Shown here piece by piece: positions 2,015 to 63,249 of a stretch of DNA of 64,000 bases. Position 1 is the stretch's first letter; each line of letters begins with the position of its first letter. The notes below the pieces were generated by a model. That model ran no database searches, was not told the origin of the DNA, and saw only the letters and a list, made by a program, of their open reading frames with translations. The position numbers were made by a program, and so were the translations under genes. The stretch is from Candidatus Enterousia sp. Its GTDB lineage: Bacteria > Pseudomonadota > Alphaproteobacteria > Rs-D84. Location: the NCBI GenBank assembly GCA_045613445.1, contig JAZLAZ010000027.1, positions 674 to 64,673 on the forward strand, read 5' to 3'.

Positions 2015-3646
2015 TTACTTCCATGCACTTGGTATTGATGACCAATCTGCCAGTCCTGTATCTTCTGAATACATTTTACCGACATGTGAATTTGATGCGT
2101 CCGGCCAAATTTCATATAAATATTTGCCACCAATTTTTGCAGAATCACCCGTCAAGGAATAGTTACGATAAAAAGTTTCTGCGAACATCTGCGCCTGTGG
2201 TGTTCCTGTTAAATCACCAAACACACCATCTTGGATGCCAGTCAGACCTGAACAGTTAAAGAATGTTCTATAAAAGATTTGTGGTGCAACATTTCCGTAT
2301 ATTTTAGCAAACAAACCACTTGGCACATCGCCAGTCAATCCTGCACATCCCGCAAAGGTATTATAAAACATCTTTTCTGCAGGTGCGCCTTCTATATCTG
2401 CGAATAAATTGTGTGGGATTTGCCCGAACAAGCTATCACACATATTAAATGTACTTTCAAACATACGCTTTACGGGCGCGCCTGTAATTCCAGCAAATAA
2501 ATCCCCAGGAATTTCACCTGTCAACTGGCCGCATCCATAAAAAGTATTTCCAAACATCAATTCTTGTGGTCCTGCGTTAAATCGACCGAACAATCCTGCT
2601 GGTATGTTACCTGTCAATCCAGAACAACCTGAAAAAGTTGCATTATACATACGCTGGGCAGGCGCACCAAAAATACCTGCGAACAATCCTGTTGGAATCG
2701 CAGTCAGCCCAGAACAGCCTGAAAATGTCGAGTGAAACATATCGCGTGCAGGTGGTCCAGAAATTCCAGCAAACAATTTGGCAGGAATTTCTCCACTTAT
2801 TCCGGAACAATTTTCAAATGTTCTGTAAAACAAGCCTTCGGTTGGTTCACCTGTGATGCCGGCAAACAAGTCGCTTGGGATTTGACCAATCAGTTTGTTA
2901 TCCCCGTAAAAAGTTCCGTAAAACATATTTTTGGCAGGTTTGCCAGAAATCCCTGAAAACAACGATGGCGGTATCGTACCAGATAAGTTTGAATTATTTC
3001 CAAATGTATAATAGAACTTTGGCTGTGTTCCATTTGCCAATGTTGAAAAAACTTGACCCAAACTGCCAGATATTCCAGCGATATTTTGATTGTTGTTAAA
3101 ACTGATTGCAGCTGTTGTCCCACCGTTATTATATGCGGTTGCTTTACCATCTAATTCAACTATATATTTACCAGGTGTATCATATTTATGACTGTACAGA
3201 ACTTCGTTAGTATTTTGTTTATCTAACACTTCTTCGTGTCCGTCCCCCCATTTTACATAGAATTTTCCCTTGGCAGATATAGTAAATTCTATATCTTTGG
3301 CTGTGTCAGTTGTATTTAATTTGAATGGGAACCCAATGAATTTGATTAGTGTATCAACTGCTTGTTGTGCTGCGATGGTATCTGCGGCGGCAGTTGTTGC
3401 GTATTCTGTTTCGCCATAATTAGTTGTCGGCCAACCATTTAACTTATAGTTTGCGACATCTATTGCAGTCAATAAATACTTCATATTTACTGCTACACTA
3501 GTATCAGTCAACTGCTCATTGATAGGGACAACGATATTCCACTTTTGCAAAATCAACTTATGAACATAATCAACATTCACAATCTGCGCAGCCCGCACAT
3601 CTAGAACAGAAAGAATCCAAATAAATGCAGCAAACAACCATTTCAT
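2015..3646 (-). CDS. Secreted repeat protein: N-terminal PKD-like domain followed by ~10 degenerate ~30-aa BspA-type LRR-like repeats (consensus LFAGIxGxPAxxMFxxTFxGCxGLTGxIP)
   Basis: Long ORF with signal peptide MKWLFAAFIWILSVLDVRA. Start chosen at the internal ATG at 3646, which is translationally coupled to the upstream small ORF stop; the ORF track start at 3685 is the alternative. Contains a WGDG...H.Y...G.Y PKD-like signature and a clearly periodic repeat. Paralog of 51773..53521. Confidence 0.75.
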   Translation of the reverse strand: MKWLFAAFIWILSVLDVRAAQIVNVDYVHKLILQKWNIVVPINEQLTDTSVAVNMKYLLTAIDVANYKLNGWPTTNYGETEYATTAAADTIAAQQAVDTLIKFIGFPFKLNTTDTAKDIEFTISAKGKFYVKWGDGHEEVLDKQNTNEVLYSHKYDTPGKYIVELDGKATAYNNGGTTAAISFNNNQNIAGISGSLGQVFSTLANGTQPKFYYTFGNNSNLSGTIPPSLFSGISGKPAKNMFYGTFYGDNKLIGQIPSDLFAGITGEPTEGLFYRTFENCSGISGEIPAKLFAGISGPPARDMFHSTFSGCSGLTAIPTGLFAGIFGAPAQRMYNATFSGCSGLTGNIPAGLFGRFNAGPQELMFGNTFYGCGQLTGEIPGDLFAGITGAPVKRMFESTFNMCDSLFGQIPHNLFADIEGAPAEKMFYNTFAGCAGLTGDVPSGLFAKIYGNVAPQIFYRTFFNCSGLTGIQDGVFGDLTGTPQAQMFAETFYRNYSLTGDSAKIGGKYLYEIWPDASNSHVGKMYSEDTGLADWSSIPSAWK

Positions 3647-3650
3647 GACA

Positions 3651-3848
3651 CTAATCCGCTGGTGGTAATGGTGGGGTAGGTACATTAAACGAACCTGTTA
3701 CAGTATATTCTCCGGCCATTGTTTGTTTTGTATCTGCAGAAACACCGACACGCGTTTCGATAGCTTCGTTCACATAATTGGTAGACGGAATAGCTGCCCA
3801 AACAGGCAATACAAAAAACACCGCCAAAAATATGACGATAACACGCAT
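3651..3848 (-). CDS. Small secreted peptide, 65 aa (signal peptide plus ~40-aa mature part), copy 1
   Basis: ORF with a strong RBS (GAGGAAG 10 nt upstream of the ATG) and N-terminal signal peptide MRVIVIFLAVFFVLPVWA. Near-identical second copy at 4148..4345 within the tandem duplication. Confidence 0.6.
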   Translation of the reverse strand: MRVIVIFLAVFFVLPVWAAIPSTNYVNEAIETRVGVSADTKQTMAGEYTVTGSFNVPTPPLPPAD

Positions 3849-4996: not shown

Positions 4997-5485
4997 ATGA
5001 AATTTATGAATCAAGCCCTTGTTTTAGCAAAAAAAGCATTTGAACACGACGATGTACCAATCGGCGCTGTGATTGTTCGTGATGGCAAAATAATTGCGCG
5101 TGGTGAAAATCAGGTACAAATGCGCAAAAATCCAACATTACACGCAGAAATAGTCGCAATAAATCGTGCCTGTAAAAAACTGGGAACAAAATTTTTAGAC
5201 GGCTGTGATATTTATGTATCTTTGGAACCTTGTGCGATGTGTGCAACCGCAATATCTTTGGCACGCATAAATAACATTTACTTTGCAGCAACTGATGAAA
5301 AGGGCGGTGGAATTACATCAAACGCACGCATTTATGAAACAGACAAACACCTATGGAAACCAAAAGTGTATCAAGTCCCAGAATATGCAGACGAATCCGC
5401 ACAATTATTGAAAGTTTTTTTTCAAAAACAACGAAATAAGAAAAAGGACGTAAAATGCAAAAAGAAACAACACACTATTTTATGA
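4997..5485 (+). CDS. tadA: tRNA-specific adenosine deaminase TadA, with a Lys-rich C-terminal extension
   Basis: CMP/dCMP-type deaminase zinc motifs HAE(x)nPCAMC are present (PTLHAEIVAI .. SLEPCAMCATAI). Confidence 0.9.
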   Translation: MKFMNQALVLAKKAFEHDDVPIGAVIVRDGKIIARGENQVQMRKNPTLHAEIVAINRACKKLGTKFLDGCDIYVSLEPCAMCATAISLARINNIYFAATDEKGGGITSNARIYETDKHLWKPKVYQVPEYADESAQLLKVFFQKQRNKKKDVKCKKKQHTIL

Positions 5486-5892
5486 TAGACAAAGATTCTT
5501 TCGACAATGGTACCGCAGAAAGATGTTCAGTAATATCATTAGATGCAACATCTGAAAATCCTTTTCGTACAGCAATTTTTCACACAAGATACGAAGCAAA
5601 CCCATGTGGATTTGGCTCTATTATCAAAATGAACGACAATAATTACTGGGTAAGAACTCTCAAATACAATGAACATAATTATGATTATGTCGTTGTTTTG
5701 GAAAAAGGTACTGATAAGTTAGTTGTTTATGGCAACAAAACGGGTGAGCGCACTATTAAAAGTCCAATTAAAGCAGAACGTGGCGATTATTTGTTGTTAC
5801 ACACAAAACATAATACAATTATTCATAATGTGACCCGTGCCAAGATGAAATTTGAAATACAAAAAATGCTGATAAACTTTAAAGAAAAATAA
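5455..5892 (+). CDS. Hypothetical protein, 145 aa
   Basis: ORF overlapping the tadA 3' end by 31 nt, with an RBS-like AAGGACG upstream of its ATG. I recognise no motifs. Confidence 0.5.
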   Translation: MQKETTHYFMIDKDSFDNGTAERCSVISLDATSENPFRTAIFHTRYEANPCGFGSIIKMNDNNYWVRTLKYNEHNYDYVVVLEKGTDKLVVYGNKTGERTIKSPIKAERGDYLLLHTKHNTIIHNVTRAKMKFEIQKMLINFKEK

Positions 5893-7481: not shown

Positions 7482-7901
7482 ATGAGTGGCAAACCTTTTT
7501 TACCAACATCTACAGACGAACACATTGGTCAACGCATGCAATTGCGTCGCGTTATGATGGGTATGTCTCAGAAAGATTTGGCCAAAATCTGTGGTGTTAC
7601 ATTTCAGCAAATTCAAAAATATGAATCTGCTGGCAATCGCATATCTGCATCGCGTCTATTTGATTTAAGTGTTGCACTACAAACACCGATTGCATTTTTC
7701 TTTCATGGATTACCTGGACATATCGATCACGAATCCAGAAACGGAAAATTACCAAAAAATTATGTCAGTGATCAACCTGCGAACGATCCACTATCAAAAA
7801 ATGAATCTTTACAATTGATAAATTTATATTGGAAATTACCAAACGACAGCCAACGCGAAGCAATTATGAAAATGTTAAAGGCATTAAACGGTCAAGAATA
7901 A
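7482..7901 (+). CDS. XRE-family helix-turn-helix transcriptional regulator
   Basis: N-terminal Cro/C1-type HTH (LRRVMMGMSQKDLAKICGVTFQQIQKYESAGNRISASRLFDLSVAL). Confidence 0.8.
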   Translation: MSGKPFLPTSTDEHIGQRMQLRRVMMGMSQKDLAKICGVTFQQIQKYESAGNRISASRLFDLSVALQTPIAFFFHGLPGHIDHESRNGKLPKNYVSDQPANDPLSKNESLQLINLYWKLPNDSQREAIMKMLKALNGQE

Positions 7902-7943: not shown

Positions 7944-8030
7944 TGGTGGGGATAGTGGGACTCGAACCCACACGGTCGCAATGACCAAAGGATTTTAAGT
8001 CCTCAGCGTCTACCATTCCGCCATATCCCC
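7944..8030 (-). tRNA. tRNA-Leu(TAA)
   Basis: 87-nt cloverleaf folded by hand: acceptor stem GGGGATA/TATCCCC, GGCGGAATGGTAGACGC D-arm typical of tRNA-Leu, anticodon loop CTTAAAA, long variable arm, T-arm GTGGGTTCGAGTCCCAC, encoded CCA. Confidence 0.85.
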
Positions 8031-8045
8031 GAAGACTTACATGTT

Positions 8046-8121
8046 TGGTGGAGCTGATGGGACTCAAACCCACGACCTCTACGATGCGAACGTAGCGCTC
8101 TATCAACTGAGCTACAACCCC
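8046..8121 (-). tRNA. tRNA-Ala(CGC)
   Basis: 76-nt cloverleaf GGGGTTGTAGCTCAGTTGATAGAGCGCTACGTTCGCATCGTAGAGGTCGTGGGTTTGAGTCCCATCAGCTCCACCA. Carries the G3:U70 alanine identity pair, anticodon loop TTCGCAT, encoded CCA. Confidence 0.8.
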
Positions 8122-8129
8122 AAAAAGCA

Positions 8130-8216
8130 TGGTGGGCGTAAGAAGACTCGAACTTCCAAGGTATTGCTACCACTAGTACCTGAAACTAGCGCGTCTACCA
8201 ATTCCGCCATACGCCC
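8130..8216 (-). tRNA. tRNA-Leu(CAG)
   Basis: 87-nt cloverleaf: acceptor stem GGGCGTA/TACGCCC, GGCGGAATTGGTAGACGC D-arm, anticodon loop TTCAGGT, long variable arm, encoded CCA. Confidence 0.85.
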
Positions 8217-8354: not shown

Positions 8355-10808
8355 ATGAAGAAAATTCTAGTTTTTGCAACAAATTTATTACTCTGTATTG
8401 GTGTCGCTGATGCAGCTGTTCGTGATGCTACTGGTATGCCACGTGCAAAAACAGACCGCACACCAACACAATCACGCGTTGCCACAACAAACAAGCGCGC
8501 TACAACAAAAAAAACTGTTTTGTCGCCACGCACACCCGCAACAAACAAGCGAACAACTACTGCACGTACTGCGATACAAACGACAAAGTCTGTTATATCA
8601 CGTGCAGGTGACACAATCGCAATATCTGATACACGCACCGGTGCGGAATACGAAAAATGTAAAAACACATACTTTACCTGTATGGATCAGTTTTGCACAC
8701 TAAAGAACGATGATTATCGACGCTGTTCATGCAGTGATCGTGTGTTTAACATGATTGATCAGCGCAACACTTTGGAAGACGCAAACGAACAATTGACAGT
8801 ATTTACAGAAAGTCTTGATGCAGTTGGCATGACAGCATCTCAGGCAGCGGCGATGAAGCAAGCATCCGAAGGTGAAAATGCTCTGACCAGTGACAAATCC
8901 GCATCCAAGGCATTATTACAGGCAATCATGAACTCTATTCGTGGCAAAGACGCCAATGTTGGTGGAAAATATTCTGATCTCAACAGTATCAATATATCTT
9001 TTGATACCGCCAACGCATTTGGCATGGCAGATGCTGGTCAGGCAATCGCAGCATACAATGGTGTTGCGCTGTATAACGCTGTATATCCACAATGTCGTCA
9101 GGCCGTCAAAAAAGATTGTTCTGACGCGTCATTACAACGTGCAGTAACCGCATATTTAATGGCCGTCGAACAAGATTGCAATACAGTACAATCAGCAATT
9201 GAAACAACACAAAAACAATTAAAATCCGCTGTCCGCGAAGGCAGCGCAATGTTGGATTTGGCACGTGTTGAAAATCGTCAAAAACACAATTCTTCAAATT
9301 TAACAACATGTATCAATGAAATCGAATCTGCAATACTCAGCGAAGAAGTTTGCGGTGCTAACTATCATAAATGCTTGGACAACGGTGAATACATAGATGT
9401 ATCAACAGGTAAACCAATCACTGGCGTATCTGACTTTTACAAACTGGGCGAACTGTTAAAATTTGCAGACGGTATTGATTCTGCGAATCAAAAACTGTCC
9501 AAACTGTCCAACAATCGCACATTCATTCAAAACTTTGAAAATCGGGTTAAAAAATTCGCAGAACCAGCATTGAACAAATGTACAGAACAGGCTGACATTG
9601 CATGGGCCAATTATCTAGACAAGGCATTATTAGATATTTATTATGCCCAACAATCAAAAGTTAGTGAAATCAAGCAAGCTTGTTTTGATTTCGTTTCATC
9701 CTGCTATATAAACGCAAATAAATCAATAACCACCGCTATGAGTGTATTGACCAATGGCAACGAAATCGTAATCAATCCTGACAAAATTGCATTGACTGAT
9801 AAAATGTGCAAAGATTATATAGATTCATGTGACGGCATGTTCAAAGATCCAGATGATCCAAATCTTGGAATTATTGCACAATACATCGAATCTCAGAAAC
9901 AAACTGATATGTTGGCGTCTTGTCGCGCTGTCGCAAAACAATGTTTTGATAAATACGGTGGGACAAATTATGAAAACTTTTATTATCCATACAGCGGTCT
10001 GTTCCAACCAGGATATGCACCGGATTGGTTTGCATTACATGAATATAACGTAATAGAAAAACAAGATAGCAACGGTAAAAATACATATGAATACCAGCTG
10101 CCTTCTGCTACATCCTATGTGTCAACATGTGCTGCACAATTGGCAGACATTGCATCTTGCAGCAAAACTGAAATAATGGAAAAAACATTTGGTGGATTTA
10201 ACAAATATATTGTTACAGACGAAAACAATAACAACAAATATGTTGTATACGGTACACATGCAGAAAATTCTACATCGGCACCAAACAATCGTTTTTCACG
10301 TTCATCAGGTGTCGCCACCGAAGTTTATAATCAAGTATTATCCGTCTTGTCTACACAATGTATGAATATTCAAGGACGTTTTGTAGAATATCAAAATGCA
10401 ATTACAGACAAAATTTATGACAATGGAACATGCAAGTTTGGAAAGCTGCCAGACTATACAGTGGTATACAAAAACTTATATAACATCCAACAGAACGAAT
10501 ATATATGCCCACGCGACTATGATATGAATGTTGACACAGAATCTTGGGGTATTTGTTCATGTTGGGCAAATGGTGCGCGTCGCAGCCAAAATAATTATAC
10601 CACAAAATGCGTTGAAAAATACAAAAACGCTAACAATGAATGGACTGATAAGGGCGTTGCCATATCTTCCAAGAATCAGGTTTGTGTATATTATATTTCA
10701 AAAACAGAAAACGCCACCTTACAAATAAAATGCACTTCTGAACCCAATTTAGAAAATAGCAATTTCGATATCATACCTGATGTTGCATATTTACCCGAAG
10801 GCATTTAA
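8355..10808 (+). CDS. Large secreted cysteine-rich protein, 817 aa, paralog A: signal peptide, then a basic Thr/Arg-rich low-complexity region, then a helical Cys-containing body
   Basis: Signal peptide MKKILVFATNLLLCIGVADA. Conserved motif YxxCxxTYFTCMDQFC...YRRCSCS and many further Cys positions shared with 12422..14893. Confidence 0.8.
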   Translation: MKKILVFATNLLLCIGVADAAVRDATGMPRAKTDRTPTQSRVATTNKRATTKKTVLSPRTPATNKRTTTARTAIQTTKSVISRAGDTIAISDTRTGAEYEKCKNTYFTCMDQFCTLKNDDYRRCSCSDRVFNMIDQRNTLEDANEQLTVFTESLDAVGMTASQAAAMKQASEGENALTSDKSASKALLQAIMNSIRGKDANVGGKYSDLNSINISFDTANAFGMADAGQAIAAYNGVALYNAVYPQCRQAVKKDCSDASLQRAVTAYLMAVEQDCNTVQSAIETTQKQLKSAVREGSAMLDLARVENRQKHNSSNLTTCINEIESAILSEEVCGANYHKCLDNGEYIDVSTGKPITGVSDFYKLGELLKFADGIDSANQKLSKLSNNRTFIQNFENRVKKFAEPALNKCTEQADIAWANYLDKALLDIYYAQQSKVSEIKQACFDFVSSCYINANKSITTAMSVLTNGNEIVINPDKIALTDKMCKDYIDSCDGMFKDPDDPNLGIIAQYIESQKQTDMLASCRAVAKQCFDKYGGTNYENFYYPYSGLFQPGYAPDWFALHEYNVIEKQDSNGKNTYEYQLPSATSYVSTCAAQLADIASCSKTEIMEKTFGGFNKYIVTDENNNNKYVVYGTHAENSTSAPNNRFSRSSGVATEVYNQVLSVLSTQCMNIQGRFVEYQNAITDKIYDNGTCKFGKLPDYTVVYKNLYNIQQNEYICPRDYDMNVDTESWGICSCWANGARRSQNNYTTKCVEKYKNANNEWTDKGVAISSKNQVCVYYISKTENATLQIKCTSEPNLENSNFDIIPDVAYLPEGI

Positions 10809-10861
10809 TAATACACAAATATTTTTCGGGGCAGGGAACAACCAATAAAAGTTACAGTCAA

Positions 10862-10893
10862 ATAAAAAATCCCCATTTTGGGGATTTTTTATT
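10862..10893. terminator. Bidirectional terminator hairpin of the AAAAAATCCCC..GGGGATTTTTT family
   Basis: AAAAAATCCCCATTTTGGGGATTTTTT, sitting between a plus-strand gene end and a minus-strand gene end. Confidence 0.65.
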
Positions 10894-12418
10894 TTTCAGA
10901 TATACATTTTTTATATTCATCTGGATTAGCCTTGGTCCAACATTGTTCATCCAACGACAGAATCGATTCGCTAACACCGACCAATTCACGCTGATTCAAT
11001 GGTGTTGCATCAACACATTGACCATCACTGTATACTTTACCAATTTCACATGTGATACACATACCATTCGCCCCCAGTCCCAAACGCTTTGGATGAATTG
11101 TTGCATCCGCAGATATTGCACAACTTACACATGTGTAATCACCGCTAATTTTTGGATCAGACGCGTATCCCATACCATCTTTACATACAAAAATTGTACA
11201 TGTTGCATCTGCGCTTGCATACAACTGATTGTATCTATCAGAACAAGATTTTGAACATATTTGTAATTCGTCACCTGTCTTCTGACTGCACGCAGAATTA
11301 CATTTGTCTGCAATCAGTGCATCTGTACCAGCTTCTTTTGTACGCCAATTCTTATATTCAAACTTATTGGTGTTTAATTCGTGAATTTTATTGTCGTACT
11401 TTGATCTATCAAAACCCGGACACAACAAATCCAAACCAGACAACTCAATTATTTTTGCCTGTTCCAATGCCGATTCATAGGCAGCTTTTTCAGTGTGACT
11501 GACATCCTGTACATCCGCCGTCTTTTGGCTGTATCCGATGCATCCACCATCATCACTATGTAAAAACTTTTCATTTGGACAATAATCTTTGGATTCTTTA
11601 CCAGTCCATGAAATCATTGGCCAACCTGTGTCAGCATAATTCTTGGCACTTGCCGCGCGAACAACCATTGGTTGTAATGTATATGTTACGCGCGCAATAC
11701 CATCTGTTTCAATATTTTTAATTGCCAGAACAACATCATGCTCTTGTGATTTCGACATTTTACGCAAGTCAACCTGTATACCACCAGAACACGCTGTATA
11801 ATTTCCATGAAAAAACATTGGAATACTGTTTTTTTGACCTGCGCCCTTCTTCAATGTTGCAACAGTTGAAGAATCTAATGGGTTTGCGTTTAAACCCGCT
11901 GCAATCTTTGCACGATTTTGAATTATTATGAAATCACTTCCATCACTATCAGGTTCTATTGCAGATGGGGTTGATGATGCACACTTATTACCATAATAAC
12001 CTTTTTCGCACAACCAAAAACAATTTTCGCCATTATCTTTATTGGCATCCGCCTTGGCAACATAGTTTGTAAATGGTGACTTTGTTATTCCGTTCCGATC
12101 TGCACCAACCGCAGTCTTACAGAATCTGTATCCATGATCATTCATTTCATGTGCAATCCAATACCATGCACCATATCCCAAATCCCCCTTACCAGACTCA
12201 GTAAAACTTGCCGCTAAATATTTACGCCATTTAAGATTTGTTTTAATATTTTCACTGCTGCCATCAAAACCAGCATCCGCACCACTACCTTTACATGTTG
12301 GATAACTGGCAGACACTTCCCATTTTGTACGATATGCAGCACCATCTTCTTTTGCAGCAAGGGCATCAGAAACAAATGAAATTGAAACCAACAAAGCAAC
12401 GAATGATATCTTATTCAT
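10889..12418 (-). CDS. Secreted cysteine-rich hypothetical protein, 509 aa
   Basis: Signal peptide MNKISFVALLVSISFVSDALA and about 30 Cys residues. Its start lies 4 nt downstream of the stop of the 823-aa paralog, so co-transcription is likely. Confidence 0.75.
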   Translation of the reverse strand: MNKISFVALLVSISFVSDALAAKEDGAAYRTKWEVSASYPTCKGSGADAGFDGSSENIKTNLKWRKYLAASFTESGKGDLGYGAWYWIAHEMNDHGYRFCKTAVGADRNGITKSPFTNYVAKADANKDNGENCFWLCEKGYYGNKCASSTPSAIEPDSDGSDFIIIQNRAKIAAGLNANPLDSSTVATLKKGAGQKNSIPMFFHGNYTACSGGIQVDLRKMSKSQEHDVVLAIKNIETDGIARVTYTLQPMVVRAASAKNYADTGWPMISWTGKESKDYCPNEKFLHSDDGGCIGYSQKTADVQDVSHTEKAAYESALEQAKIIELSGLDLLCPGFDRSKYDNKIHELNTNKFEYKNWRTKEAGTDALIADKCNSACSQKTGDELQICSKSCSDRYNQLYASADATCTIFVCKDGMGYASDPKISGDYTCVSCAISADATIHPKRLGLGANGMCITCEIGKVYSDGQCVDATPLNQRELVGVSESILSLDEQCWTKANPDEYKKCISEK

Positions 12419-12421
12419 TTC

Positions 12422-14893
12422 TTATTCCCCCTGAACATAATAACAAGTGTTATTTTCATAATACCCGCCAATCCATGCACATCTTTCTTGATGCCATTTT
12501 TCTGTAAATATACACTGATCTTTTTCCGCATCATACACTGCATATTCTTCGCCACCTTGGGCTTCACATTGAATTTGAACAGAATTTTGATAACAAGTAC
12601 CATACGATCCAGCAATTTTATCTGCACTTGCCCCAATTGCATCATAGAATTTCAATTCGGTTGCACCATTTAATGTTCTTGCACCATCAGAACCCGCTGA
12701 TCCCATATTACATACCTTCTTGGTCCAATCGCTGCCAGTCCCTGTTGCACCGGTATCTTCTTCACAAGTTGCATCGACCCATAAACCACCAAACTTATCA
12801 CATTCATCCGCCAACATTGTTCCCACTTCGGCATAAATTGTATCGACCAGTCTTGTAACAGTTGTATTCGGATCGATTAAAGTATCATTTAATGTACCAT
12901 CCGTGTTATTGACAGCACAATATACAGTCGCCCGTGAGTCAAAACTAGCGGCTAAATCCGCGGGTTTCATTGAACGACAGCCCCATGGATATTGATGTGA
13001 AGAATCTGACGATGCAGGCGCACATGTTTCACGAGCATACTTTGCCATCGCATCTGCGCAACCTTCTGCTATCTTGGTACTGTCAACTGTTGCAACATAC
13101 GCCAACAATTCCGATAATCCGCACTGTGTTGCATTTAAGACACGACCTTGATTATCAAAGTTACAATTTGCACCATTTCCATACAATGCAGCACAAGCTG
13201 CAACCTTGTCAGAACACATTGCACGCGCAGCATTGGCCGCAATTGCACCTGCAGACTGTGCAGATGTTGTATCAAAATCTTTTAATGCACCAGATTGTTT
13301 GTCATAACAATCACCCATTGTTGCAACGCAAGTCGATTTGACTTCTTCGATTTTTTCATCTTGAGCCTGGGCAATTTCGATAATTGCAGTACGTTTGAAT
13401 TCTGTCCAAACTGTATCAGCAATATCACGACAAGAATCCAATGCTGTTGTTGCAAACATCTTTTTCGAATCTAAGAATTTATTGAATTCTGTATTATTAG
13501 TCAATACATCACCAAATGAATCAGAACCTGAAGAATACAGATTTATCATTTCTGTCAATTTGAACAACAATGGGGAATAAATTGCTTCACCTGTTGTCTG
13601 ATTGATATATTGCCCAGAATAGTCCAAACAACGGTTATAATCCGAACCACATGCAGTATCTTGCAACATTGCACTGCGAACCTTGGAAATACATTCGTTC
13701 ACATCTGCCGAATTATGTGCACGATATTCTTCCAATCGAGCATCGCGCAACATTTTTTCCGCTTCGCGTACAGTGTTCATAATTGCTTGACGCTGAGTAT
13801 CCAACTTCTTTTCATACAAATTACAATCTTGAGTAATCATCAAACTGTATGAACTGGTTGCCATATTCAATATTGCATTTGAAGAACAAGAATCAGCAAT
13901 AATTTCTAAGCATTGTTTGTTTGATTCATTGTACAATTGCTGTCCCGACATTTCTGTCATATTTGGACCACCACGGCTGGAACCGCCACCAAATATGGAA
14001 TCAACAGAACCACCACCCCATAAATCATCCATGTCGATCGAAAAGCCATTTGTTAAACTGCTAAAATCCAAGGTATTTAATTTCTTTTCTTCTGTTTTTT
14101 TCTTTTTACCAGACAACAAATCACCAATCTCATTCAAAACAGATTGCGCGCCACTTACATCTTTTTTAATTGCAGCTTCGCCAACAGTTGCTGTATACAT
14201 TGCCTTTACTTCTGCAGCAGTTTTATCAACGGCATTCAAATTATTATCTTCAAAGCGCTGTAATAATGTTTTTACTTCTTCAAACATAGCTTCGGTTTCT
14301 TGAAACTGAGTAAACTTTTCACTGCAATAACAGCGGCGAAAAGTATCGTTTGCGTTTGCACAAAACTGATCCATACATGTCGCATAAGAATCACGACACT
14401 GTGCATATCCACCACCAATCTTAGAAATATCGTTAAATACAGCTGTTGCACGCGCCATATTTGCTACACGTGCCATCCCCATATTTGAAACAGATTTAGA
14501 AGCACTGCGCGCATTGTTTTTCATCCCAACAACTGCGCTACGCACCGGATTCGCCTTGGTTGCACTGCGAACAGTTGTCGTTGCCGAACGATTCGACACA
14601 GTTGCATGACGCGTAACATCGCGCCCCGTTCTGGCCACAGTTGATTTATTTGTCGCACCACGCGCTGTAACACTACCAGAATTACGGGCTTTGACAGCAC
14701 CACGGCTGACCACAGGTGCCGACGAACCATCACCACGCGTCATAACCCTGGACGATGAATTTCGCACTGCATTCACATCAGCAGAAACTGCACTGCGCGG
14801 ATTTGGCGCCTGATCTGCAACCCCAGATGTCGCACACAAACACATTGTCAAAACCGCAGGAAACCGATAAAAATGTTTAAACATGGCCTTCAC
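12422..14893 (-). CDS. Large secreted cysteine-rich protein, 823 aa, paralog B of 8355..10808
   Basis: Signal peptide, then a basic Ser/Arg/Thr-rich low-complexity region, then YAQCRDSYATCMDQFC..FRRCYCS. Collinear similarity to paralog A across most of the length (e.g. DCNxx..L..AR.E..R..HNS..N.CI..V.SA.L....CG..Y..CLD). Confidence 0.8.
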   Translation of the reverse strand: MKAMFKHFYRFPAVLTMCLCATSGVADQAPNPRSAVSADVNAVRNSSSRVMTRGDGSSAPVVSRGAVKARNSGSVTARGATNKSTVARTGRDVTRHATVSNRSATTTVRSATKANPVRSAVVGMKNNARSASKSVSNMGMARVANMARATAVFNDISKIGGGYAQCRDSYATCMDQFCANANDTFRRCYCSEKFTQFQETEAMFEEVKTLLQRFEDNNLNAVDKTAAEVKAMYTATVGEAAIKKDVSGAQSVLNEIGDLLSGKKKKTEEKKLNTLDFSSLTNGFSIDMDDLWGGGSVDSIFGGGSSRGGPNMTEMSGQQLYNESNKQCLEIIADSCSSNAILNMATSSYSLMITQDCNLYEKKLDTQRQAIMNTVREAEKMLRDARLEEYRAHNSADVNECISKVRSAMLQDTACGSDYNRCLDYSGQYINQTTGEAIYSPLLFKLTEMINLYSSGSDSFGDVLTNNTEFNKFLDSKKMFATTALDSCRDIADTVWTEFKRTAIIEIAQAQDEKIEEVKSTCVATMGDCYDKQSGALKDFDTTSAQSAGAIAANAARAMCSDKVAACAALYGNGANCNFDNQGRVLNATQCGLSELLAYVATVDSTKIAEGCADAMAKYARETCAPASSDSSHQYPWGCRSMKPADLAASFDSRATVYCAVNNTDGTLNDTLIDPNTTVTRLVDTIYAEVGTMLADECDKFGGLWVDATCEEDTGATGTGSDWTKKVCNMGSAGSDGARTLNGATELKFYDAIGASADKIAGSYGTCYQNSVQIQCEAQGGEEYAVYDAEKDQCIFTEKWHQERCAWIGGYYENNTCYYVQGE

Positions 14894-14955: not shown

Positions 14956-15348
14956 TTACTTTATATCCCCAGCATCAATCAATTCCATATTGATTCCCCA
15001 AAATAACGAATATTTTTCATACGCGCTGTCATATAACTTATAAGCTTCAGCATTGTTCCCACATGTCAACTGTTTATCACCATCGACCATCAGCCGCATC
15101 GATTCTAACAACAGTTGTTCAGATAACAATCTGTTTTTATCTGATTTTTTTACAATTTTATCCATCAGCTTTGATTGTATATTGTGCACTATTTTTGATA
15201 AATCAGAATCATTATTCAAATAGTCTTTGATAAACAACAAATTCATCATACCGATTGTCAAATCCTGATCCGAAGACAAATCAAGCGCATTGACTTTTTT
15301 TGCAGAATCCGCACATTCGACCATATGTTTCAAATCAATGTTTTTCAT
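14956..15348 (-). CDS. Hypothetical protein, 130 aa, sitting where ftsL would be expected after rsmH but with no transmembrane segment
   Basis: ORF overlapping the rsmH stop by 14 nt. No recognisable motifs and no hydrophobic helix. Confidence 0.5.
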   Translation of the reverse strand: MKNIDLKHMVECADSAKKVNALDLSSDQDLTIGMMNLLFIKDYLNNDSDLSKIVHNIQSKLMDKIVKKSDKNRLLSEQLLLESMRLMVDGDKQLTCGNNAEAYKLYDSAYEKYSLFWGINMELIDAGDIK

Positions 15349-16195
15349 TATAATTCCTTTTTATTACACCACGCATATGCGCTGATCTGGCACGCGAATT
15401 ATTTGCCAGTTCTATATCAGACGGTGTTTGCGCCCGTATCATATCAAATGGGGCAGGTTGCAACATAGGTAATCGCGGATTACCTAATGGTGTTGTCCAT
15501 TCACGAAAGGTATTCTTTACAATCCTATCTTCTAATGAATGGAAAGTCACACAAATACACTTTCCACCCGAATTTAATAATTCAGGCACCGCCAACAAAG
15601 CCCGTTCTAATTCACCCATTTCATCATTCACGGCGATACGCAACGCTTGAAAAACCGGTGCAACATCATTTGGATTATAAATCAAATCACGCAATTCAAA
15701 TGTTGTCTGTGGCTTTGCCTCTTTTATCGCATTGGCCAATATATTTGCTTTTTTTACATCACCATATTTACGCAAAATATCTGCCAATTCCGCCACTGAC
15801 ATCTGTTCTATCAACTGTGCTGCAGTGGTACCAACATTAGACATACGCATATCCAATGGCGCATCAAAACGGAACGAAAAACCACGCGTTGGCACATCTA
15901 TCTGCATCGAAGATATTCCTAAATCAAACACAATTGCATCAACAGACGACTTTAATTCAGATATGCAAGAAAAAGTCTTTGGCACAAAGCGAAAACGACT
16001 TCCAAACTCGCGCTGCATTTCATTTGCATCTGCGACAACATTTGAATCTCTGTCAAAAGCAATAACATTTGCGCCAGCATTCAAAAAAGCCCGTGAATAA
16101 CCACCAGCGCCAAAAGTACAATCAATAACTGTTTTGCCAGATATATCACCCAAAGCATTTAATACACAATCCAGCAGTACAGGTACATGTTTCAT
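15335..16195 (-). CDS. rsmH: 16S rRNA (cytosine1402-N4)-methyltransferase RsmH (MraW)
   Basis: 286-aa ORF with the RsmH motifs DCTFGAGGYS, FDLGISSMQID and VTFHSLEDRIVK. Confidence 0.9.
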   Translation of the reverse strand: MKHVPVLLDCVLNALGDISGKTVIDCTFGAGGYSRAFLNAGANVIAFDRDSNVVADANEMQREFGSRFRFVPKTFSCISELKSSVDAIVFDLGISSMQIDVPTRGFSFRFDAPLDMRMSNVGTTAAQLIEQMSVAELADILRKYGDVKKANILANAIKEAKPQTTFELRDLIYNPNDVAPVFQALRIAVNDEMGELERALLAVPELLNSGGKCICVTFHSLEDRIVKNTFREWTTPLGNPRLPMLQPAPFDMIRAQTPSDIELANNSRARSAHMRGVIKRNYNEKH

Positions 16196-19100
16196 TATTC
16201 CACCTCTATCCGCAGTCCCAACGCAGCCAAATCTGCGATTGTCGTATTTCCTAGTTCAACCCCCCCAGGCAATGCCAAAGTTGCCACTTTATCAGCGCCA
16301 TGCAAATTCAATACAACCTGCGTATAACCGCGTGGCAGGGCAATAATAGCCTTTTTAACATCTTGCAACACAGCCTTATCCCGAATATCCATTGTGATTC
16401 TTTTAGCGATTTTTGCTACCCACTGCGTCAATGGGATAATAGAATCAACAAATACAGATACGCGATCATCACGATTTGATGTTTTTCCTGATATCAAAAC
16501 AACCGTTTCGCTGGACAAAATCTGAGAAAATTCAATCGCAGAATCCCCAAATGCAACTGCATCGATATTCCCTAAACTGTCGGATGCATTTATTGTTATC
16601 ATTTCTTTACCTGTCTTGGTACGACGACGGCCAAAAGAATTCACATTCACTGCAATTTGAACAGATTTTCTGTCCCCCAATGTTGCCAATGTTGCACTGG
16701 TTGCCAAACCAGCTGATTTTATCAAATGCTTATATTGATCCAACGGATGCGCAGAAATATAAAACCCAAGTGCAGATAATTCGTGTTCCAACCGTTGTCC
16801 AAATGTCCAAGGCGTTGTTTTTGGCATGTTTTTATGCAATCTATCTTCAACAACATCATCTTCTACAGTATTTGCAAACAATGACAGCATATTTGCACCA
16901 TCACGCGATTTTGCAGCATACGATAAAATTGCATCTGCATTCATATAAATCGCGGCACGATTTGATTCCAAAGAATCCAACACACCTGTTTTTGCAAAAG
17001 CTTCCAATATTCGTTTGTTCATAATCGGTGCACAACGCTTGGCAAAATCGGTCAAATTCTTAAATTTGCCATTTGCTTTTCTTTCTGCAACAATTGCATC
17101 AGTTGCAACTGTTCCAACCCCTTTTAACGCTGCCAAACCATAAACAATCTTTCCGTCACGCACAGTAAACAACGATTCGCTTTCGTTTATATCTGGTGCA
17201 ACAATCTGGATTCCAAAATTAGACTTAGCATCATCAACAAACAACGCTAACTGATCTGTATCATTCAAGTTACTGGACATTGAAGCCGCTAAAAATTCTG
17301 GGGTATAGTTTGCTTTTAAATACGCACATTGATTTGCAACGATTGAATACGCGATAGCATGCGATTTATTAAACGCATATTTTGCGAATTCCTTAAATTT
17401 TTCCCATAAATCTTTTGCCGTTGCACGATCCAGTGTTTGTTCTTTTTCGCACCCCTCATAAAACTTACCTTCCAGTTCGTTCAACATTTCAATCAGTTTT
17501 TTACCCATTGCCTTACGCACATTATCTGATTGGCCACGGGTAAATCCTGCCAATGCGCGTGTCAACTGCATAACCTGTTCTTGGTAAACGATAATGCCGT
17601 ATGTTTCTTTTAAGATTGGTTCTGCCTTTGGATGAACATATTCGATCTGTTCTTCACCATGCATACGAGCGATAAACTGAGGAATAAATGCGATTGGCCC
17701 CGGACGGTTCAATGCATTCAGTGCAGAAATTTCCAAAAAACTTGTTGGATGCATCTTGCGCAGGGTCTGTTTAACAAACGGCGCATCGAACTGGAATATA
17801 CCTTCGGTCAGTCCTGCTTGCCATAACTTCATTGTTTTTGGATCATCTGTTGGGATTTGATCTAAATCGATATTGATCCCACGCGTTTGCTGAATCAAAC
17901 GCGTTGCATACTTTAACACCACCAGCGTTTCCAATCCCAAAAAGTCAAATTTTATCAGCCCAGATTTTTCCAAATATTTTCCATCAAATTGACATGATGG
18001 CAATGGGTTCGCAGGATCACGATACACTGGTGCAATCTTGGTTGTTGGTCTGTCGCCAATAACCACACCACACGCATGCTGTCCCAAATTACGCAACGAG
18101 CCTTCCAGTTCTTCGGCAATGGTTACAACTTTATTCAAATCTTGATCATTATTCAAAATTTCCTGTATTTCACCAGACATATCCACCGCATCTTTCAATG
18201 TTTTGGCATCCTGTGGAATCAGTTTAGATAATCTGTCTGACTTAGAATAGGGCATACCATACACGCGTCCAATATCACGAATTGCGCCACGCGCCTGCAA
18301 ACTGCCAAAAGTTATAATACGGCAAACAGAATCATGTCCATATTTATCACAAACATACGCCAAAACGCGTTCGATACCTGTTGGTTCAAAATCCACATCA
18401 AAGTCCGGCATCGATATACGATCAGGATTCAAGAATCTTTCGAACAGTAATCCATATTTTAACGGATCAACATTTGTAATCCCCAGCGCCCACGCAACAA
18501 TAGACCCAGCACCAGAACCACGCCCAGGCCCAGTCAAAACATCGTTATTCCGACACCAATCGATATAATCCGCAACAATCAAGAAATACCCTGGGAATCC
18601 CATACCAATAATAACACCCAGTTCAAATTCAGCCTGTTCATAATACGGTGCCGTATCAGTAATATTATGCTGTTCCAATCTGCGCTTTAAACCCGCCATC
18701 GTATTATCGCGCAGCATTTGACATTCTGTTTCTAAATCATCCCCAAATCGTGGCAACAGCGGTTTTTCATGAACATTTACCATAAAACCACAGCGTTTTG
18801 CGATACGAACAGTGTTTTCAACTGCTTCGGGCAAATCAGAAAATATTTTTGACATCTGTTCATATGATTTAAAATACTGTTCTGATGATTTACGTGGTCG
18901 TTCTGGATCAATCACCTTGGTCTGGCCCAGTACACATCCCAACGCGTCAGCAGATTCATAGTCATTATCTGCCGCAAAACAAACATCATTTGTCGCAACA
19001 ATTGGGATATTTAATTCTTGAGCAATTTTCAAAAATCCTGGTTCTGTTTTAATTTCTGCATCCAATCCATGTCGCTGAATTTCAATATAAAATCTGTTAC

Positions 19101-19641
19101 CAAACATTTTCAAGAAATCATTGGCATACATTTGCGCCTGACTATCTTGCCCATTTAACAATGCCATACCAATTGGTCCTGTATGCGCCCCTGACAAACA
19201 AATAAGTCCATTACTGTGCGCAATCAATTCTTCCATTGTTATATACGCCCCCAAATGATGATTATCAGCCCGCATATACATGACCTTATTCAATTCGCAC
19301 AAATTCAGATAACCGTCGTGATTTTGTGCCAGCAACACAATCTTTGACAAAGATTCAGAACGCAAAATTTTTGGATCTACATTATGATGATTCAATGATA
19401 TCTCAATACCAATAATTGGCTGTAATTTATTTTTTGGCATAACATCTGAAAATTCTGCACAACCAGACATTAAATTTGTATCAGTCAGCGCACACGCAGA
19501 CATCCCAGCCGCCACACATAACGCCGGTATTTTTTTTATTGTCAGCGTACTGGCCCCAACAGAAAACCTTGAATGTGTACGAAGATGAATGAATTGATTT
19601 TCCATGCTAAATACCATAGCAAAATGCCACACCCAAGGCAA
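16195..19641 (-). CDS. dnaE: DNA polymerase III subunit alpha
   Basis: 1148-aa ORF with the PHP domain (FIHLRTHSRFS) and the polymerase core. The annotated start is a TTG with an AGGA RBS. An internal ATG at about 19605 (MENQFIHL..) would match the usual DnaE N-terminus better. Confidence 0.9.
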   Translation of the reverse strand: MPWVWHFAMVFSMENQFIHLRTHSRFSVGASTLTIKKIPALCVAAGMSACALTDTNLMSGCAEFSDVMPKNKLQPIIGIEISLNHHNVDPKILRSESLSKIVLLAQNHDGYLNLCELNKVMYMRADNHHLGAYITMEELIAHSNGLICLSGAHTGPIGMALLNGQDSQAQMYANDFLKMFGNRFYIEIQRHGLDAEIKTEPGFLKIAQELNIPIVATNDVCFAADNDYESADALGCVLGQTKVIDPERPRKSSEQYFKSYEQMSKIFSDLPEAVENTVRIAKRCGFMVNVHEKPLLPRFGDDLETECQMLRDNTMAGLKRRLEQHNITDTAPYYEQAEFELGVIIGMGFPGYFLIVADYIDWCRNNDVLTGPGRGSGAGSIVAWALGITNVDPLKYGLLFERFLNPDRISMPDFDVDFEPTGIERVLAYVCDKYGHDSVCRIITFGSLQARGAIRDIGRVYGMPYSKSDRLSKLIPQDAKTLKDAVDMSGEIQEILNNDQDLNKVVTIAEELEGSLRNLGQHACGVVIGDRPTTKIAPVYRDPANPLPSCQFDGKYLEKSGLIKFDFLGLETLVVLKYATRLIQQTRGINIDLDQIPTDDPKTMKLWQAGLTEGIFQFDAPFVKQTLRKMHPTSFLEISALNALNRPGPIAFIPQFIARMHGEEQIEYVHPKAEPILKETYGIIVYQEQVMQLTRALAGFTRGQSDNVRKAMGKKLIEMLNELEGKFYEGCEKEQTLDRATAKDLWEKFKEFAKYAFNKSHAIAYSIVANQCAYLKANYTPEFLAASMSSNLNDTDQLALFVDDAKSNFGIQIVAPDINESESLFTVRDGKIVYGLAALKGVGTVATDAIVAERKANGKFKNLTDFAKRCAPIMNKRILEAFAKTGVLDSLESNRAAIYMNADAILSYAAKSRDGANMLSLFANTVEDDVVEDRLHKNMPKTTPWTFGQRLEHELSALGFYISAHPLDQYKHLIKSAGLATSATLATLGDRKSVQIAVNVNSFGRRRTKTGKEMITINASDSLGNIDAVAFGDSAIEFSQILSSETVVLISGKTSNRDDRVSVFVDSIIPLTQWVAKIAKRITMDIRDKAVLQDVKKAIIALPRGYTQVVLNLHGADKVATLALPGGVELGNTTIADLAALGLRIEVE

Positions 19642-40849: not shown

Positions 40850-41308
40850 ATGATTTCTTATATCTTTTTCATTATTTTACTAGCTTTTGCGGCATTTTTG
40901 TCTATTAAAATATCAATTGCTGACCTGCGTCGCAGAATCATACCAGACGCATACTTATTTCCATTGATGCTGATTGGGTTGACTTTGATATCATTTTATT
41001 CTTTTCCAACAAACATTCAAACAGCAACTATTGGCGCTATATTTGGCTATACAATGGCGGCCATTATCGGAATCATATTTGAAAAAACAAAGAAATCTAA
41101 CGATGCACCGATTGGCATGGGCGACCTAAAATTATTAGGGGTAGGCGGGATATGGCTGGGCACAAATGGACTGGCAATTGCACTGATCATCGCATGCATT
41201 TCCGGCATGATATGGTCAAGACAAAAACAACAAAAATATATCCCTTTTGCACCATTCTTTATATTTGGGGGATTTTTATCTTTTATTATAAATCTGTTTT
41301 TGTTATAA
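40850..41308 (+). CDS. A24-family prepilin peptidase (CpaA/TadV-like), orphan: no pilus-assembly genes nearby
   Basis: 152-aa polytopic ORF with the two Asp motifs (ISIADLRRRIIPD and GMGDLKLLG) characteristic of Flp prepilin peptidases. Confidence 0.7.
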   Translation: MISYIFFIILLAFAAFLSIKISIADLRRRIIPDAYLFPLMLIGLTLISFYSFPTNIQTATIGAIFGYTMAAIIGIIFEKTKKSNDAPIGMGDLKLLGVGGIWLGTNGLAIALIIACISGMIWSRQKQQKYIPFAPFFIFGGFLSFIINLFLL

Positions 41309-41330
41309 TCAATCAAACAGGGAACCGGAA

Positions 41331-51745: not shown

Positions 51746-51776
51746 AAAAATCCCCCAAACTGGGGGATTTTTTTAC
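51744..51776. terminator. Bidirectional terminator hairpin AAAAAAATCCCCCAAACTGGGGGATTTTTTT, 31-nt core identical to the copy at 53844
   Basis: Shared between the rpiB 3' end (plus strand) and the 3' end of the minus-strand repeat-protein gene. Confidence 0.7.
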
Positions 51777-53521: not shown

Positions 53522-53548
53522 ACACCCCCCGATATAATGGTGGGGCAA

Positions 53549-61660: not shown

Positions 61661-61681
61661 GTTTTATCAACCTTTTTATTA

Positions 61682-62158: not shown

Positions 62159-62165
62159 CCTCTCT

Positions 62166-62942: not shown

Positions 62943-63249
62943 CCCAACACCCCCTACACATAAAAAAAAACCACCGCGACTTATCAGGTGGTTGGAGTTG
63001 GTAACAATAGCAAGAATTGCATGCTTATTCAATATATTCGCATACTCCAACCAACAGTTGGAATATGTTTTTACGTCTTTTCTGACGCTTGCTATATAGT
63101 GGGTTACCAGCCCAATCAACAGAACACCTGCAGACCCTATTAGTATATCACATCACTTTAACACATGTCAAACACATACATAAAAACACCTAGACTTTTG
63201 TTCCTATTTTCGTATAAAATTATCCCAACATAAATCCAGGGAAACTATT

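Follow-up and report, generated by a model that had tools for sequence, protein, structure and literature searches.

Why would a bacterium with a small genome commit ~6.5 kb, or ~0.7% of its coding capacity, at one locus to three proteins predicted to be exported? This is a substantial investment on such a scale. The locus lies in a window of 64,000 nucleotides, the whole stretch of DNA analyzed here, from Candidatus Enterousia sp., and encodes two large cysteine-rich proteins, A817 and B823 (A and B), and a smaller one, C509 (C). Candidatus Enterousia/Rs-D84 are gut Alphaproteobacteria with genomes of 0.7 to 1.0 Mb. Widespread but uncultured, with genomes of <1 Mb, the lineage is described as having neither standard transporters nor a respiratory chain, and dependence on a partner has been proposed (PMC12306168). 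Genes for BamD, MurJ, RlpA-SPOR, an M23 peptidase, and LpxA/B in the window mark the organism as a diderm with peptidoglycan and LPS. Nothing related to A, B, or C has a known function or structure, and the three are therefore prime candidates for components of the special envelope of this lineage.

Gene layout, export, and cysteine content

The features of the locus are collected in Table 1. All three ORFs were confirmed at the positions given by an initial annotation of the DNA, each with a signal peptide and rich in cysteine, and the three adjacent tRNA genes and XRE regulator that it described were recovered by ARAGORN and by a Pfam HTH_3 match, respectively. Its estimate of ~30 cysteines for C509 was too high; we counted 22. 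B823 starts with GTG, although gene callers on near-identical contigs take an ATG three codons in, which gives a protein of 820 aa. B is always co-oriented with an abutting C509: only 3 nt separate the B stop codon from the start of C509, with a GGGGGA ribosome-binding site inside the end of B, and in one relative (L007) the B stop and C start overlap. C509 is thus probably translationally coupled to B. Further upstream, rsmH and ORF130 overlap by 14 nt.

Table 1 Features of the locus, with positions in the window
Feature	Position	Strand	Description or evidence
XRE-family HTH regulator, 139 aa	7482..7901	+	Pfam HTH_3, E = 4.8e-12
tRNA-Leu(TAA), tRNA-Ala(CGC), tRNA-Leu(CAG)	7944..8216	-	ARAGORN; divergent from A817
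A817	8355..10808	+	ORF; helical protein rich in Cys (28 in mature form), predicted to be exported; monocistronic
A817 signal peptide, aa 1-20, MKKILVFATNLLLCIGVADA	8355..8414	+	Read from sequence
A817 basic Thr/Ser/Arg-rich disordered tail, aa 21-93	8415..8633	+	pLDDT 31-36
A817 predicted disulfide-stapled helical core, aa 94-545	8634..9989	+	AF2 helices, mostly pLDDT >85
A817 variable C-terminal part, aa 546-817	9990..10805	+	AF2 pLDDT 84-97, strands and helices
Candidate bidirectional intrinsic terminator	10863..10891	.	Hairpin bounded by A-run and T-run; sequence TAAAAAATCCCCATTTTGGGGATTTTTTA
C509	10889..12418	-	ORF; predicted exported Cys-rich protein, 22 Cys; second gene of B-C pair
B823	12422..14893	-	ORF; A817 paralog, 30 Cys in mature form
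ORF130	14956..15348	-	ORF; small conserved protein without signal peptide, between rsmH and B
rsmH, 16S rRNA m4C1402 methyltransferase	15335..16195	-	PF01795 Methyltransf_5 in orthologs (L090, L004-L008)
dnaE, DNA polymerase III alpha	16195..19641	-	PHP, DNA_pol3_alpha, HHH_6 domains in orthologs

A817 and C509 are convergent, and the hairpin between them covers the C509 stop codon. It was found by eye, being absent from the list of a consensus terminator scanner, and is likely to be a bidirectional intrinsic terminator for both genes. Orthologs of the XRE regulator (75 to 96% identity) lie across the tRNA cluster from A, or beside C, in relatives; we class the regulator as a neighbor of the cluster. 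Control by the cell-cycle regulator CtrA was rejected: a scan of the window for CtrA boxes (TTAA-N7-TTAA) gave no site near the three genes, and their number in the window was below chance expectation.

Sec-type signal peptides are predicted on A817, B823, and C509 (MNKISFVALLVSISFVSDALA in the last), and the mature N termini of A and B are conserved. That of A reads A-V-R-D-G/A, with A[AG][VI]RDG behind the hydrophobic stretch of almost every A-type sequence, and that of B is a conserved QAPNPRS. The signal peptide is the only hydrophobic 19-mer in A817, and neither A nor B has a second hydrophobic segment. Outer-membrane translocation signals, lipoboxes, and β-barrels were looked for in A and B, and none was seen. 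We rejected the assignment of A and B as lipoproteins, as the signal-peptide cysteine lacks both conservation and a lipobox context.

The number of cysteines is even in 101 of 104 mature A/B proteins and in 9 of 9 C proteins, with totals ranging from 26 to 46. Such counts are a disulfide signature, cysteines being gained and lost in pairs, and we therefore predict structural disulfides formed outside the cytoplasm; the parity favors fully paired, intramolecular bonds. No Dsb-type CPHC oxidoreductase is encoded in the window, where the only such motif is the zinc site of LeuRS. Given also the reported lack of a respiratory chain, the family raises the question of which oxidant such an anaerobe uses to form ~14 to 15 disulfides per protein.

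A new family with two ancient branches

In BLASTP, A and B align across 448 aa with 31% identity (E = 2e-55), with TCMDQFC, RRCxCS, QDCN, and CG..Y..CLD..G.YI in register, so that the match runs far beyond the CMDQFC motif. The initial annotation had anticipated ~25 to 35% identity across >600 aa; the identity agrees, but the alignable span is shorter, at ~450 to 500 aa. In a 104-sequence family alignment, each of the first 17 cysteines of A (C102 to C523) lies opposite a cysteine of B. The view of A and B as true paralogs with a common architecture and collinear cysteines therefore holds, both proteins having a signal peptide, an Arg-rich tail, a motif-bearing helical core, and the 17 collinear cysteines. 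Over the last ~270 aa, A and B can hardly be aligned (hhalign probability, 35%). A817 and B823 are ancient paralogs, each heading its own orthologous group; no further A/B paralog was found within the window.

The tails of A and B are low-complexity, Arg-rich segments of 75 to 143 aa, with a modal Arg-Arg spacing of 7. Those of the A type (75 to 113 aa) contain 12.8% Arg and 5.5% Lys, with a net charge of +0.14 per residue, and the B823 tail, rich in Ala, Ser, and Arg, extends for ~130 aa up to the helical core, which in turn precedes a divergent C-terminal part. Across the family the charge per residue is +0.13 to +0.14 in the tail versus −0.04 to −0.06 in the body, which, together with the low pLDDT of the A817 tail (Table 1), agrees with the basic, disordered N-terminal region noted at the outset. 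Tandem DNA repeats were looked for as a possible origin of the tails, and none was found. The A817 core holds TCMDQFC...RRCSCS, five CX6C pairs, and one CX7C pair. The AF2 model of A817 has a mean pLDDT of 78 but a pTM of only 0.54, such that the overall shape is uncertain. The C-terminal part is modeled as a compact, mostly mixed α/β domain with no barrel, and no Pfam match to a type V autotransporter β-barrel translocator was obtained.

Conservation is distributed unevenly along the chain. Residues 94 to 470 of A are 68 to 84% identical among orthologs and 30 to 39% identical to B; for residues 471 to 550 the values are 69% and 14%, and for the C-terminal part 41 to 49% and ~15%, while the tail is 41% identical among orthologs. 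Taking A and B together, ortholog identity is 67 to 84% in the core, 26 to 49% in the C-terminal part, and 41 to 43% in the tail.

The initial annotation did not recognize the family, and neither did our searches, which revealed no homology to a housekeeping family. Matches of A, B, C, and ORF130 in Pfam, NCBIfam, and PHROGs were all below threshold, at the level of noise; a PDB sequence-profile search returned 0 matches at E ≤ 10, and a whole-chain fold search of the PDB found no relative. A and B each have >900 homologs, all annotated "hypothetical protein," none with a Pfam domain, and all from Alphaproteobacteria, Enterousia, or Rickettsiales metagenome-assembled genomes. At least 589 coding stretches were found in GTDB species representatives (Candidatus Enterousia or uncultured Alphaproteobacteria), among which are closed genomes 0.72 and 0.96 Mb in size. 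Only 903 clusters emerged when 1.84 billion representatives were searched exhaustively with a profile. No matches to plasmids or phages were obtained, and no fused known domains were found in longer, distant members (1,020 to 1,176 aa). A and B thus appear to form a new, previously unnamed family, found only in Rs-D84 gut Alphaproteobacteria. They make a clean structural target, with a likely new disulfide-stapled helical fold, and a possible lineage marker.

C509 is unrelated to the A/B family: hhalign of the family alignments gave a probability of 0.2%, and BLASTP found no match. A word search recovered only 8 homologs, and models for Furin-like, VSP, and EGF-type Cys-rich repeats did not match C509. 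Its AF2 model is poor, with a pLDDT of 61, too low for a meaningful fold search.

Selection and synteny

Whole-gene dN/dS, calculated against a relative at a dS of ~0.9 to 1.7, was 0.067 for A, 0.085 for B, and 0.110 for C, with a range of 0.05 to 0.07 for A817. Between near-identical strains the ratio was ~0.3 for B and C, and the same for rsmH and gpmI, which we attribute to small numbers of substitutions. A and B are under purifying selection. They are also old: A orthologs are 54 to 85% identical in >100 clusters, B orthologs are 47 to 96% identical, and the two groups are kept at 47 to 87% identity across Candidatus Enterousia/Rs-D84. These results contradict the recent paralog expansion and diversifying selection suggested by the initial annotation, and make it unlikely that the proteins are surface or host-interaction adhesins, expanded by duplication and diversifying under selection. 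What evolves fast is C509, at 2 to 3 times the rate of A/B (syntenic C counterparts are 22 to 37% identical where B counterparts are 49 to 67%), and the C-terminal parts of A and B; these may have a role at the surface or in interaction with a partner.

Contrary to the initial annotation, the three genes do not form a unit. In most genomes A is separate from B-C, between its tRNA cluster and lpxB-lpxA (A adjoins the tRNA cluster and lpxB in ~57 of 80 genome loci), and B-C always stands behind rsmH-ORF130. In these comparisons the near-identical contig L090 served as a stand-in for the window locus; its rsmH is a near-identical ortholog of that in the window, and dnaE is 89 to 95% identical among loci. 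The order dnaE-rsmH-ORF130-B-C was kept wherever B was found (L004-L008, L010-L012, and L090, and in L089 and L091 as far as the contigs reach). ORF130 orthologs occupy the same position in L004, L006, and L007 (41 to 62% identity) and also occur in L010-L012, L089, and L090. In the cluster of three, two older blocks, tRNA(Leu/Ala/Leu)-A and dnaE-rsmH-ORF130-B-C, have come to lie side by side, an arrangement specific to the lineage.

In the dcw cluster, rsmH is normally followed by ftsL-ftsI. ORF130-B-C does replace ftsL-ftsI here, as the initial annotation had implied, but this is a conserved arrangement across the order rather than an interruption. The lineage-wide position directly downstream of rsmH would fit B and C as periplasmic proteins of division or wall growth, acting with the divisome or elongasome. 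Peptidoglycan could be a ligand of the basic tail, and peptidoglycan-related MurJ, RlpA, and M23 peptidase are encoded elsewhere in the window. We nevertheless consider this improbable. Models for FtsL and FtsI (PBP3) in Pfam and NCBIfam did not match B, C, or ORF130, and none of A, B, C, and ORF130 resembles FtsL, FtsI, or any PBP; ORF130 contains no hydrophobic stretch long enough to span a membrane; A, a paralog with the same core, lies in an unrelated context; and the adjacency to rsmH may reflect only the loss or relocation of dcw genes in a reduced genome.

There is very little chance that the proteins are toxins or effectors secreted against competitors or host cells, for example as helical pore-formers or bacteriocins. 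The fold match to the pore-forming toxin ClyA, with a root mean square deviation of 23.7 Å, led us to reject it as a model, and the proteins contain no hydrophobic or amphipathic segment for membrane insertion. No immunity or secretion genes lie nearby, and lineage-wide conservation under purifying selection, with no plasmid or phage matches, also argues against such a function.

A horizontally acquired island integrated at the tRNA cluster is effectively refuted. Three tRNA genes and an XRE regulator do adjoin A, and a strain-level rearrangement occurred just upstream of tRNA-A (L001 and L002 encode an identical A protein in different upstream contexts), but the same tRNA cluster precedes A genus-wide, with the three tRNAs immediately before the A ortholog in L001, L002, L011, L022, L044, and L086 and an additional tRNA-Val in L001, L022, and L044. 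The B-C block is likewise conserved genus-wide, the GC content (0.35 to 0.43) resembles that of the rest of the window, and there are no integrases, repeats, or mobile-element matches in a family confined to the Rs-D84 lineage. Proximity to tRNA genes is thus no mark of an island here.

A proposed role at the cell envelope

That A and B are core parts of the cell envelope or surface, and not fast-evolving host-interaction genes, is the most likely interpretation. We give roughly even chances to the specific proposal that A817 and B823 are core extracytoplasmic scaffold proteins of a lineage-restricted family, not recently expanded, diversifying adhesins. A, and a B-C complex suggested by gene order only, would then constitute a structural scaffold of the cell envelope or surface. 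Through the basic tail, the acidic body could conceivably be tethered to an anionic polymer of the envelope, be it peptidoglycan, LPS, or a neighboring subunit; the disulfide-stapled helical core would act as a rigid, invariant stalk, with C509 and the variable C-terminal part as distal elements facing the environment or a partner.

Chlamydial OmcB binds anionic glycans through a basic segment near its N terminus, and its fold is β-rich. Like A and B, OmcB and OmcA are rich in cysteine, exported by the Sec route, and encoded in a reduced genome, and they belong to the core envelope, as we propose for A and B; however, A and B gave no match to them in Pfam or NCBIfam at E ≤ 1, the AF2 model is helical, and Enterousia keeps its peptidoglycan and LPS genes. 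Alphaproteobacteria also have tethers between the outer membrane and peptidoglycan that involve N-terminal attachment of outer-membrane proteins. A and B share with these a short, conserved mature N-terminal motif followed by a flexible segment, as a tether or sorting signal would have, although A and B are not β-barrels and the motif differs. The twin-CXnC proteins (small Tims, CX3C; CHCH proteins, CX9C) are ~10-kDa chaperones of the mitochondrial intermembrane space with no homology to A and B, in which the motif is instead reiterated within an exported bacterial protein of 800 aa. A CXnC-type hairpin in C509 is missing from several of its homologs. Plasmodium RH5 and PvRBP2b, disulfide-containing helical adhesins, scored at the level of generic helical bundles or designed proteins; they have no sequence similarity to A and B and come from unrelated organisms, and serve as an analogy only.

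The family offers an entry point to the partner-dependence hypothesis. A bolder proposal, to which we assign a rather low probability, is that A, B, C, and further paralogs elsewhere in these genomes build a hitherto unseen, disulfide-stabilized extracellular or periplasmic structure that defines the Rs-D84 surface and mediates a partner-dependent (epibiotic) lifestyle. Candidates would be a protein lattice in the envelope or an organelle for attachment, with a new fold. The arginine-heptad tail would anchor it, and partners would be recognized by the surface that the C subunit and the variable C-terminal part provide. Such a structure would imply a route of oxidative protein folding in an anaerobe without a respiratory chain. 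Outside the window, a paralog of 728 aa in L060 also shows the architecture and motifs of the A/B family.

Two paralogous exported proteins

The three secreted Cys-rich ORFs reported in the initial annotation, the large A817 and B823 and the smaller C509, are present just as it gave them, beside three tRNA genes and an XRE regulator, and its description of the genes was right overall. BLASTP aligned A with B at 31% identity (E = 2e-55), within the anticipated range of ~25-35%, though over 448 aa and not the >600 aa expected. The alignment extends beyond the CMDQFC motif with the other shared motifs in register; in a 104-sequence alignment of the family, 17 A cysteines, from C102 to C523, each lie opposite a B cysteine, bearing out the collinearity noted earlier. 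The last ~270 residues are barely alignable (hhalign probability, 35%). Judged by sequence, A and B are true paralogs; no further copy was found within the window. In counterparts of B823 on near-identical contigs, gene callers chose an ATG three codons later, giving 820 aa.

Features of the locus and other ORFs of the window
Feature	Position	Strand	Remarks
A817	8355..10808	+	ORF
C509	10889..12418	-	ORF
B823	12422..14893	-	ORF; start codon GTG
ORF130	14956..15348	-	Conserved small protein; 14-nt overlap with rsmH
tRNA genes Leu-TAA, Ala-CGC, Leu-CAG	7944..8216	-	
HTH_3/XRE regulator	7482..7901		
Hairpin	10863..10891		Flanking A-run/T-run, between convergent A and C; by inspection
556-aa ORF	2015..3685	-	Signal-like N-terminus; no confident Pfam family
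145-aa ORF	5455..5892	+	No confident Pfam family; kept beside gpmI in relatives L009 and L090
705-aa ORF	38038..40155	-	No confident Pfam family
A24 peptidase, 726- and 557-aa proteins	40850..45185	+	Prepilin-type peptidase, then two secreted proteins
591-aa protein	51773..53548	-	Secreted; 20 Cys; BspA-type leucine-rich repeats
165-, 158- and 317-aa ORFs	61163..63119	-	Tandem; signal-peptide-like N-termini; 6-7% Cys

The signal peptides are of Sec type I; a lipoprotein assignment was rejected because the Cys within them is not conserved, leaving no lipobox. The mature N-termini are remarkably well conserved (A[AG][VI]RDG in A, QAPNPRS in B). The basic tails, 75-113 aa in A and 102-143 aa in B, are richer in Arg (12-13%) than in Lys (4-5%); their net charge per residue is +0.13 to +0.14, whereas that of the body is -0.04 to -0.06. 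The most frequent distance between Arg residues in the tails is 7, as in repeats of the kind [VT]-[AS]-R-[ST]; no tandem DNA repeats encode the tails. The AlphaFold2 model of A817 (mean pLDDT, 78; pTM, 0.54; 396 residues at pLDDT 90 or above) has long helices between residues 94 and 545 and a compact alpha/beta domain at about 555 to 800, a fold that is probably new. Five CX6C pairs and one CX7C pair are situated on the helices, consistent in the model with disulfides that staple neighboring helices.

The cysteine count is even in 101 of the 104 mature A/B proteins, with totals of 26 to 46 (binomial p = 2e-26, a value that overstates independence, the sequences being related), and in 9/9 C proteins (18, 20 or 22). 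Since the totals vary yet stay even, cysteines have been gained and lost in pairs. Oxidative folding is known to leave such a bias toward even cysteine counts among the exported proteins of a genome, and this parity is the strongest indirect evidence for the disulfides predicted in A and B. Oxidizing ~14-15 disulfides per protein would be a puzzle for an anaerobe that reportedly has no respiratory chain; the window contains no Dsb-like gene.

C509, credited earlier with ~30 Cys, has 22. It is unrelated to A and B (hhalign, 0.2%), and a fold search with its poor model (pLDDT 61) gave no match. Only a local twin-CX3C hairpin in it is reminiscent of small Tim proteins. Among characterized systems, the closest functional analogy is with OmcB/OmcA, the Cys-rich envelope proteins of chlamydiae, although neither sequence nor fold class agrees.

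Gene order around A and B-C

Every B ortholog retrieved on a long enough contig lies in the order secA-(APH-like)-dnaE-rsmH-ORF~130-B-C, even where its identity to B823 is as low as 49-67%. Across these loci the C genes are homologs of one another, at just 22-37% identity. ORF130 (41-62% identity across B loci) sits between rsmH and B at every locus seen; it has no signal peptide and no family match, and chaperone, regulator or another role are candidates. A promoter-like site precedes B. The B stop and C start codons are 3 nt apart, with GGGGGA as a ribosome-binding site inside the B 3' end; in one relative (L007) the two codons overlap. These local signals fit a B-C bicistron. The B-C slot after rsmH is an order-wide feature, and the genes do not interrupt an rsmH-ftsL-ftsI (dcw) neighborhood as first supposed.

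The A ortholog is usually found away from B-C, convergent with lpxB-lpxA in about 57 of 80 genome loci (the best 80 of at least 589 GTDB coding stretches), and the same tRNA Leu/Ala/Leu(+Val) cluster precedes it in 6/6 loci checked. The window's layout, with the tRNA-A block abutting the end of B-C, occurs only in the closest relatives (L009-L012, L089, L090); at 40-47 kb the window keeps the usual A home without A (gcrA, prepilin peptidase, two secreted paralogs, lpxB, lpxA). Because A usually lies elsewhere and the B-C order is conserved, we conclude that the three-gene cluster arose where two older, conserved units (tRNA-A and B-C) came to lie side by side in this lineage alone. Despite the adjoining tRNA genes, nothing marks an island: composition is uniform and there were no plasmid, phage or PHROG matches, making acquisition as a tRNA-associated island hardly credible.

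In most related genomes A lies between the counterpart of the window's A24-led cluster and lpxB. Two loci from different samples (L001, L002) encode an identical 839-aa A ortholog (P0059) and the same downstream genes and differ upstream of the tRNA cluster, with gcrA-A24 in one and gpmI-XRE in the other, which points to strain-level rearrangement there; the L001 A24 cluster holds different genes. Directly 3' of B-C in L004 (14741..22619) is a giant ORF whose product, >3,500 aa long, carries Flg_new (Listeria-Bacteroides repeat) domains, and a similar protein occurs near the family member in L093.

Distribution and host lineage

Searches with either paralog gave >900 homologs. They all come from MAGs of Alphaproteobacteria, are unnamed or annotated "hypothetical protein," and have no Pfam domain. 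At least 589 coding stretches turned up in GTDB species representatives; the 80 best came from "Candidatus Enterousia sp.," uncultured Alphaproteobacteria or "Rickettsiales" of ruminant, horse, chicken, human and mouse guts, and included two closed chromosomes (958,618 and 716,531 bp). When 1.84 billion representative proteins were searched exhaustively with a profile, only 903 clusters matched (428 at E <= 1e-30), and the family is therefore narrow. Its remotest members, of 1,020-1,176 aa, match the profile only over the N-terminal ~600 positions, and no known domains occur in their extra parts; those with a source name are labeled Alphaproteobacteria, Proteobacteria or "Rickettsiales" MAGs. 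The family is real, well-defined, previously uncharacterized and core to an enigmatic gut lineage.

Genomes of the order Rs-D84, which includes Enterousia, are mostly <1 Mb, lack the TCA cycle, respiratory chain, flagella and standard nutrient transporters, and encode RodA, MreB and MrdA (PMC12306168). The window encodes BamD, MurJ, RlpA-SPOR, an M23 peptidase and LpxA/LpxB, and the organism is therefore a diderm with peptidoglycan and LPS.

Relatives carry more paralog types (L060:6394..8580 [-], L082:1235..4216 [+], L092:10001..13531, L093:10001..13174). A 728-aa form has the same signal peptide, Arg tail and the motif YTSCMDNFC...GRCSCS; a 1,050-1,180-aa form adjoins pth-polA in 2/2 loci examined. 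Beside the distant paralog, L092:8081..9703 (-) encodes a match to PF17251 (Pom), a Protochlamydia outer-membrane protein family, with an alpha-2-macroglobulin/PBP1c pair farther upstream. Two records titled "uncultured Muribaculaceae bacterium" (L081, CAZJGX010000001.1; L086, OZ246409.1, 716,531 bp) have the A gene, lpx genes and tRNA cluster of the Enterousia type, so these labels are probably wrong.

Selection and possible roles

In a comparison with the diverged relative L089 (dS, 0.9-1.7), the Nei-Gojobori dN/dS of A was 0.067; B had 0.085, C 0.110 and ORF130 0.125. With the near-identical strain L090, B and C gave about 0.3, not above rsmH and gpmI, values that rest on few substitutions. 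A, B and C are under purifying selection, contrary to the diversifying selection first proposed; the accompanying idea of paralog expansion was not upheld either. Identity within orthologs is 67-84% in the helical core, 41-43% in the basic tail and 26-49% in the C-terminal part. Residues 161-180 and 199-224 of A, unplaced by AlphaFold, lie within a stretch (161-225) where A orthologs share 81% identity; these two segments may serve in interactions and become ordered upon binding.

These proteins are exported, disulfide-bonded and conserved in the lineage; their build is modular, the core being conserved and the ends variable, and B and C are coupled. We give roughly even credence to a reading in which A, and a B-C complex, would be structural scaffolds of the cell surface or envelope. 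In this reading the basic tail would fasten the acidic body to an anionic polymer or neighboring subunit, and the stapled helical core would form a rigid stalk, with the variable C-terminal part and C509 pointing outward. That the proteins are diversifying adhesins, as the surface or host-interaction proposal implied, is unlikely and can be entertained for the variable parts alone. Less probable still is a periplasmic role linked to division or the wall, to which the slot after rsmH points, and a function as toxins or effectors is very improbable. The mechanism holds no surprise so far; the family is a good target for structural and cell biology.

Other exported proteins are encoded in the window. 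The 591-aa BspA-type protein is, from its repeats, a likely surface adhesin. The 726- and 557-aa proteins match no Pfam family and are mutual paralogs (26% identity over 446 aa, E = 5e-30). The 165-, 158- and 317-aa ORFs, likewise without a Pfam family, are another Cys-rich exported set in this genome; two of them, of 158 and 165 aa, are paralogs of each other (24% identity, E = 1e-6).
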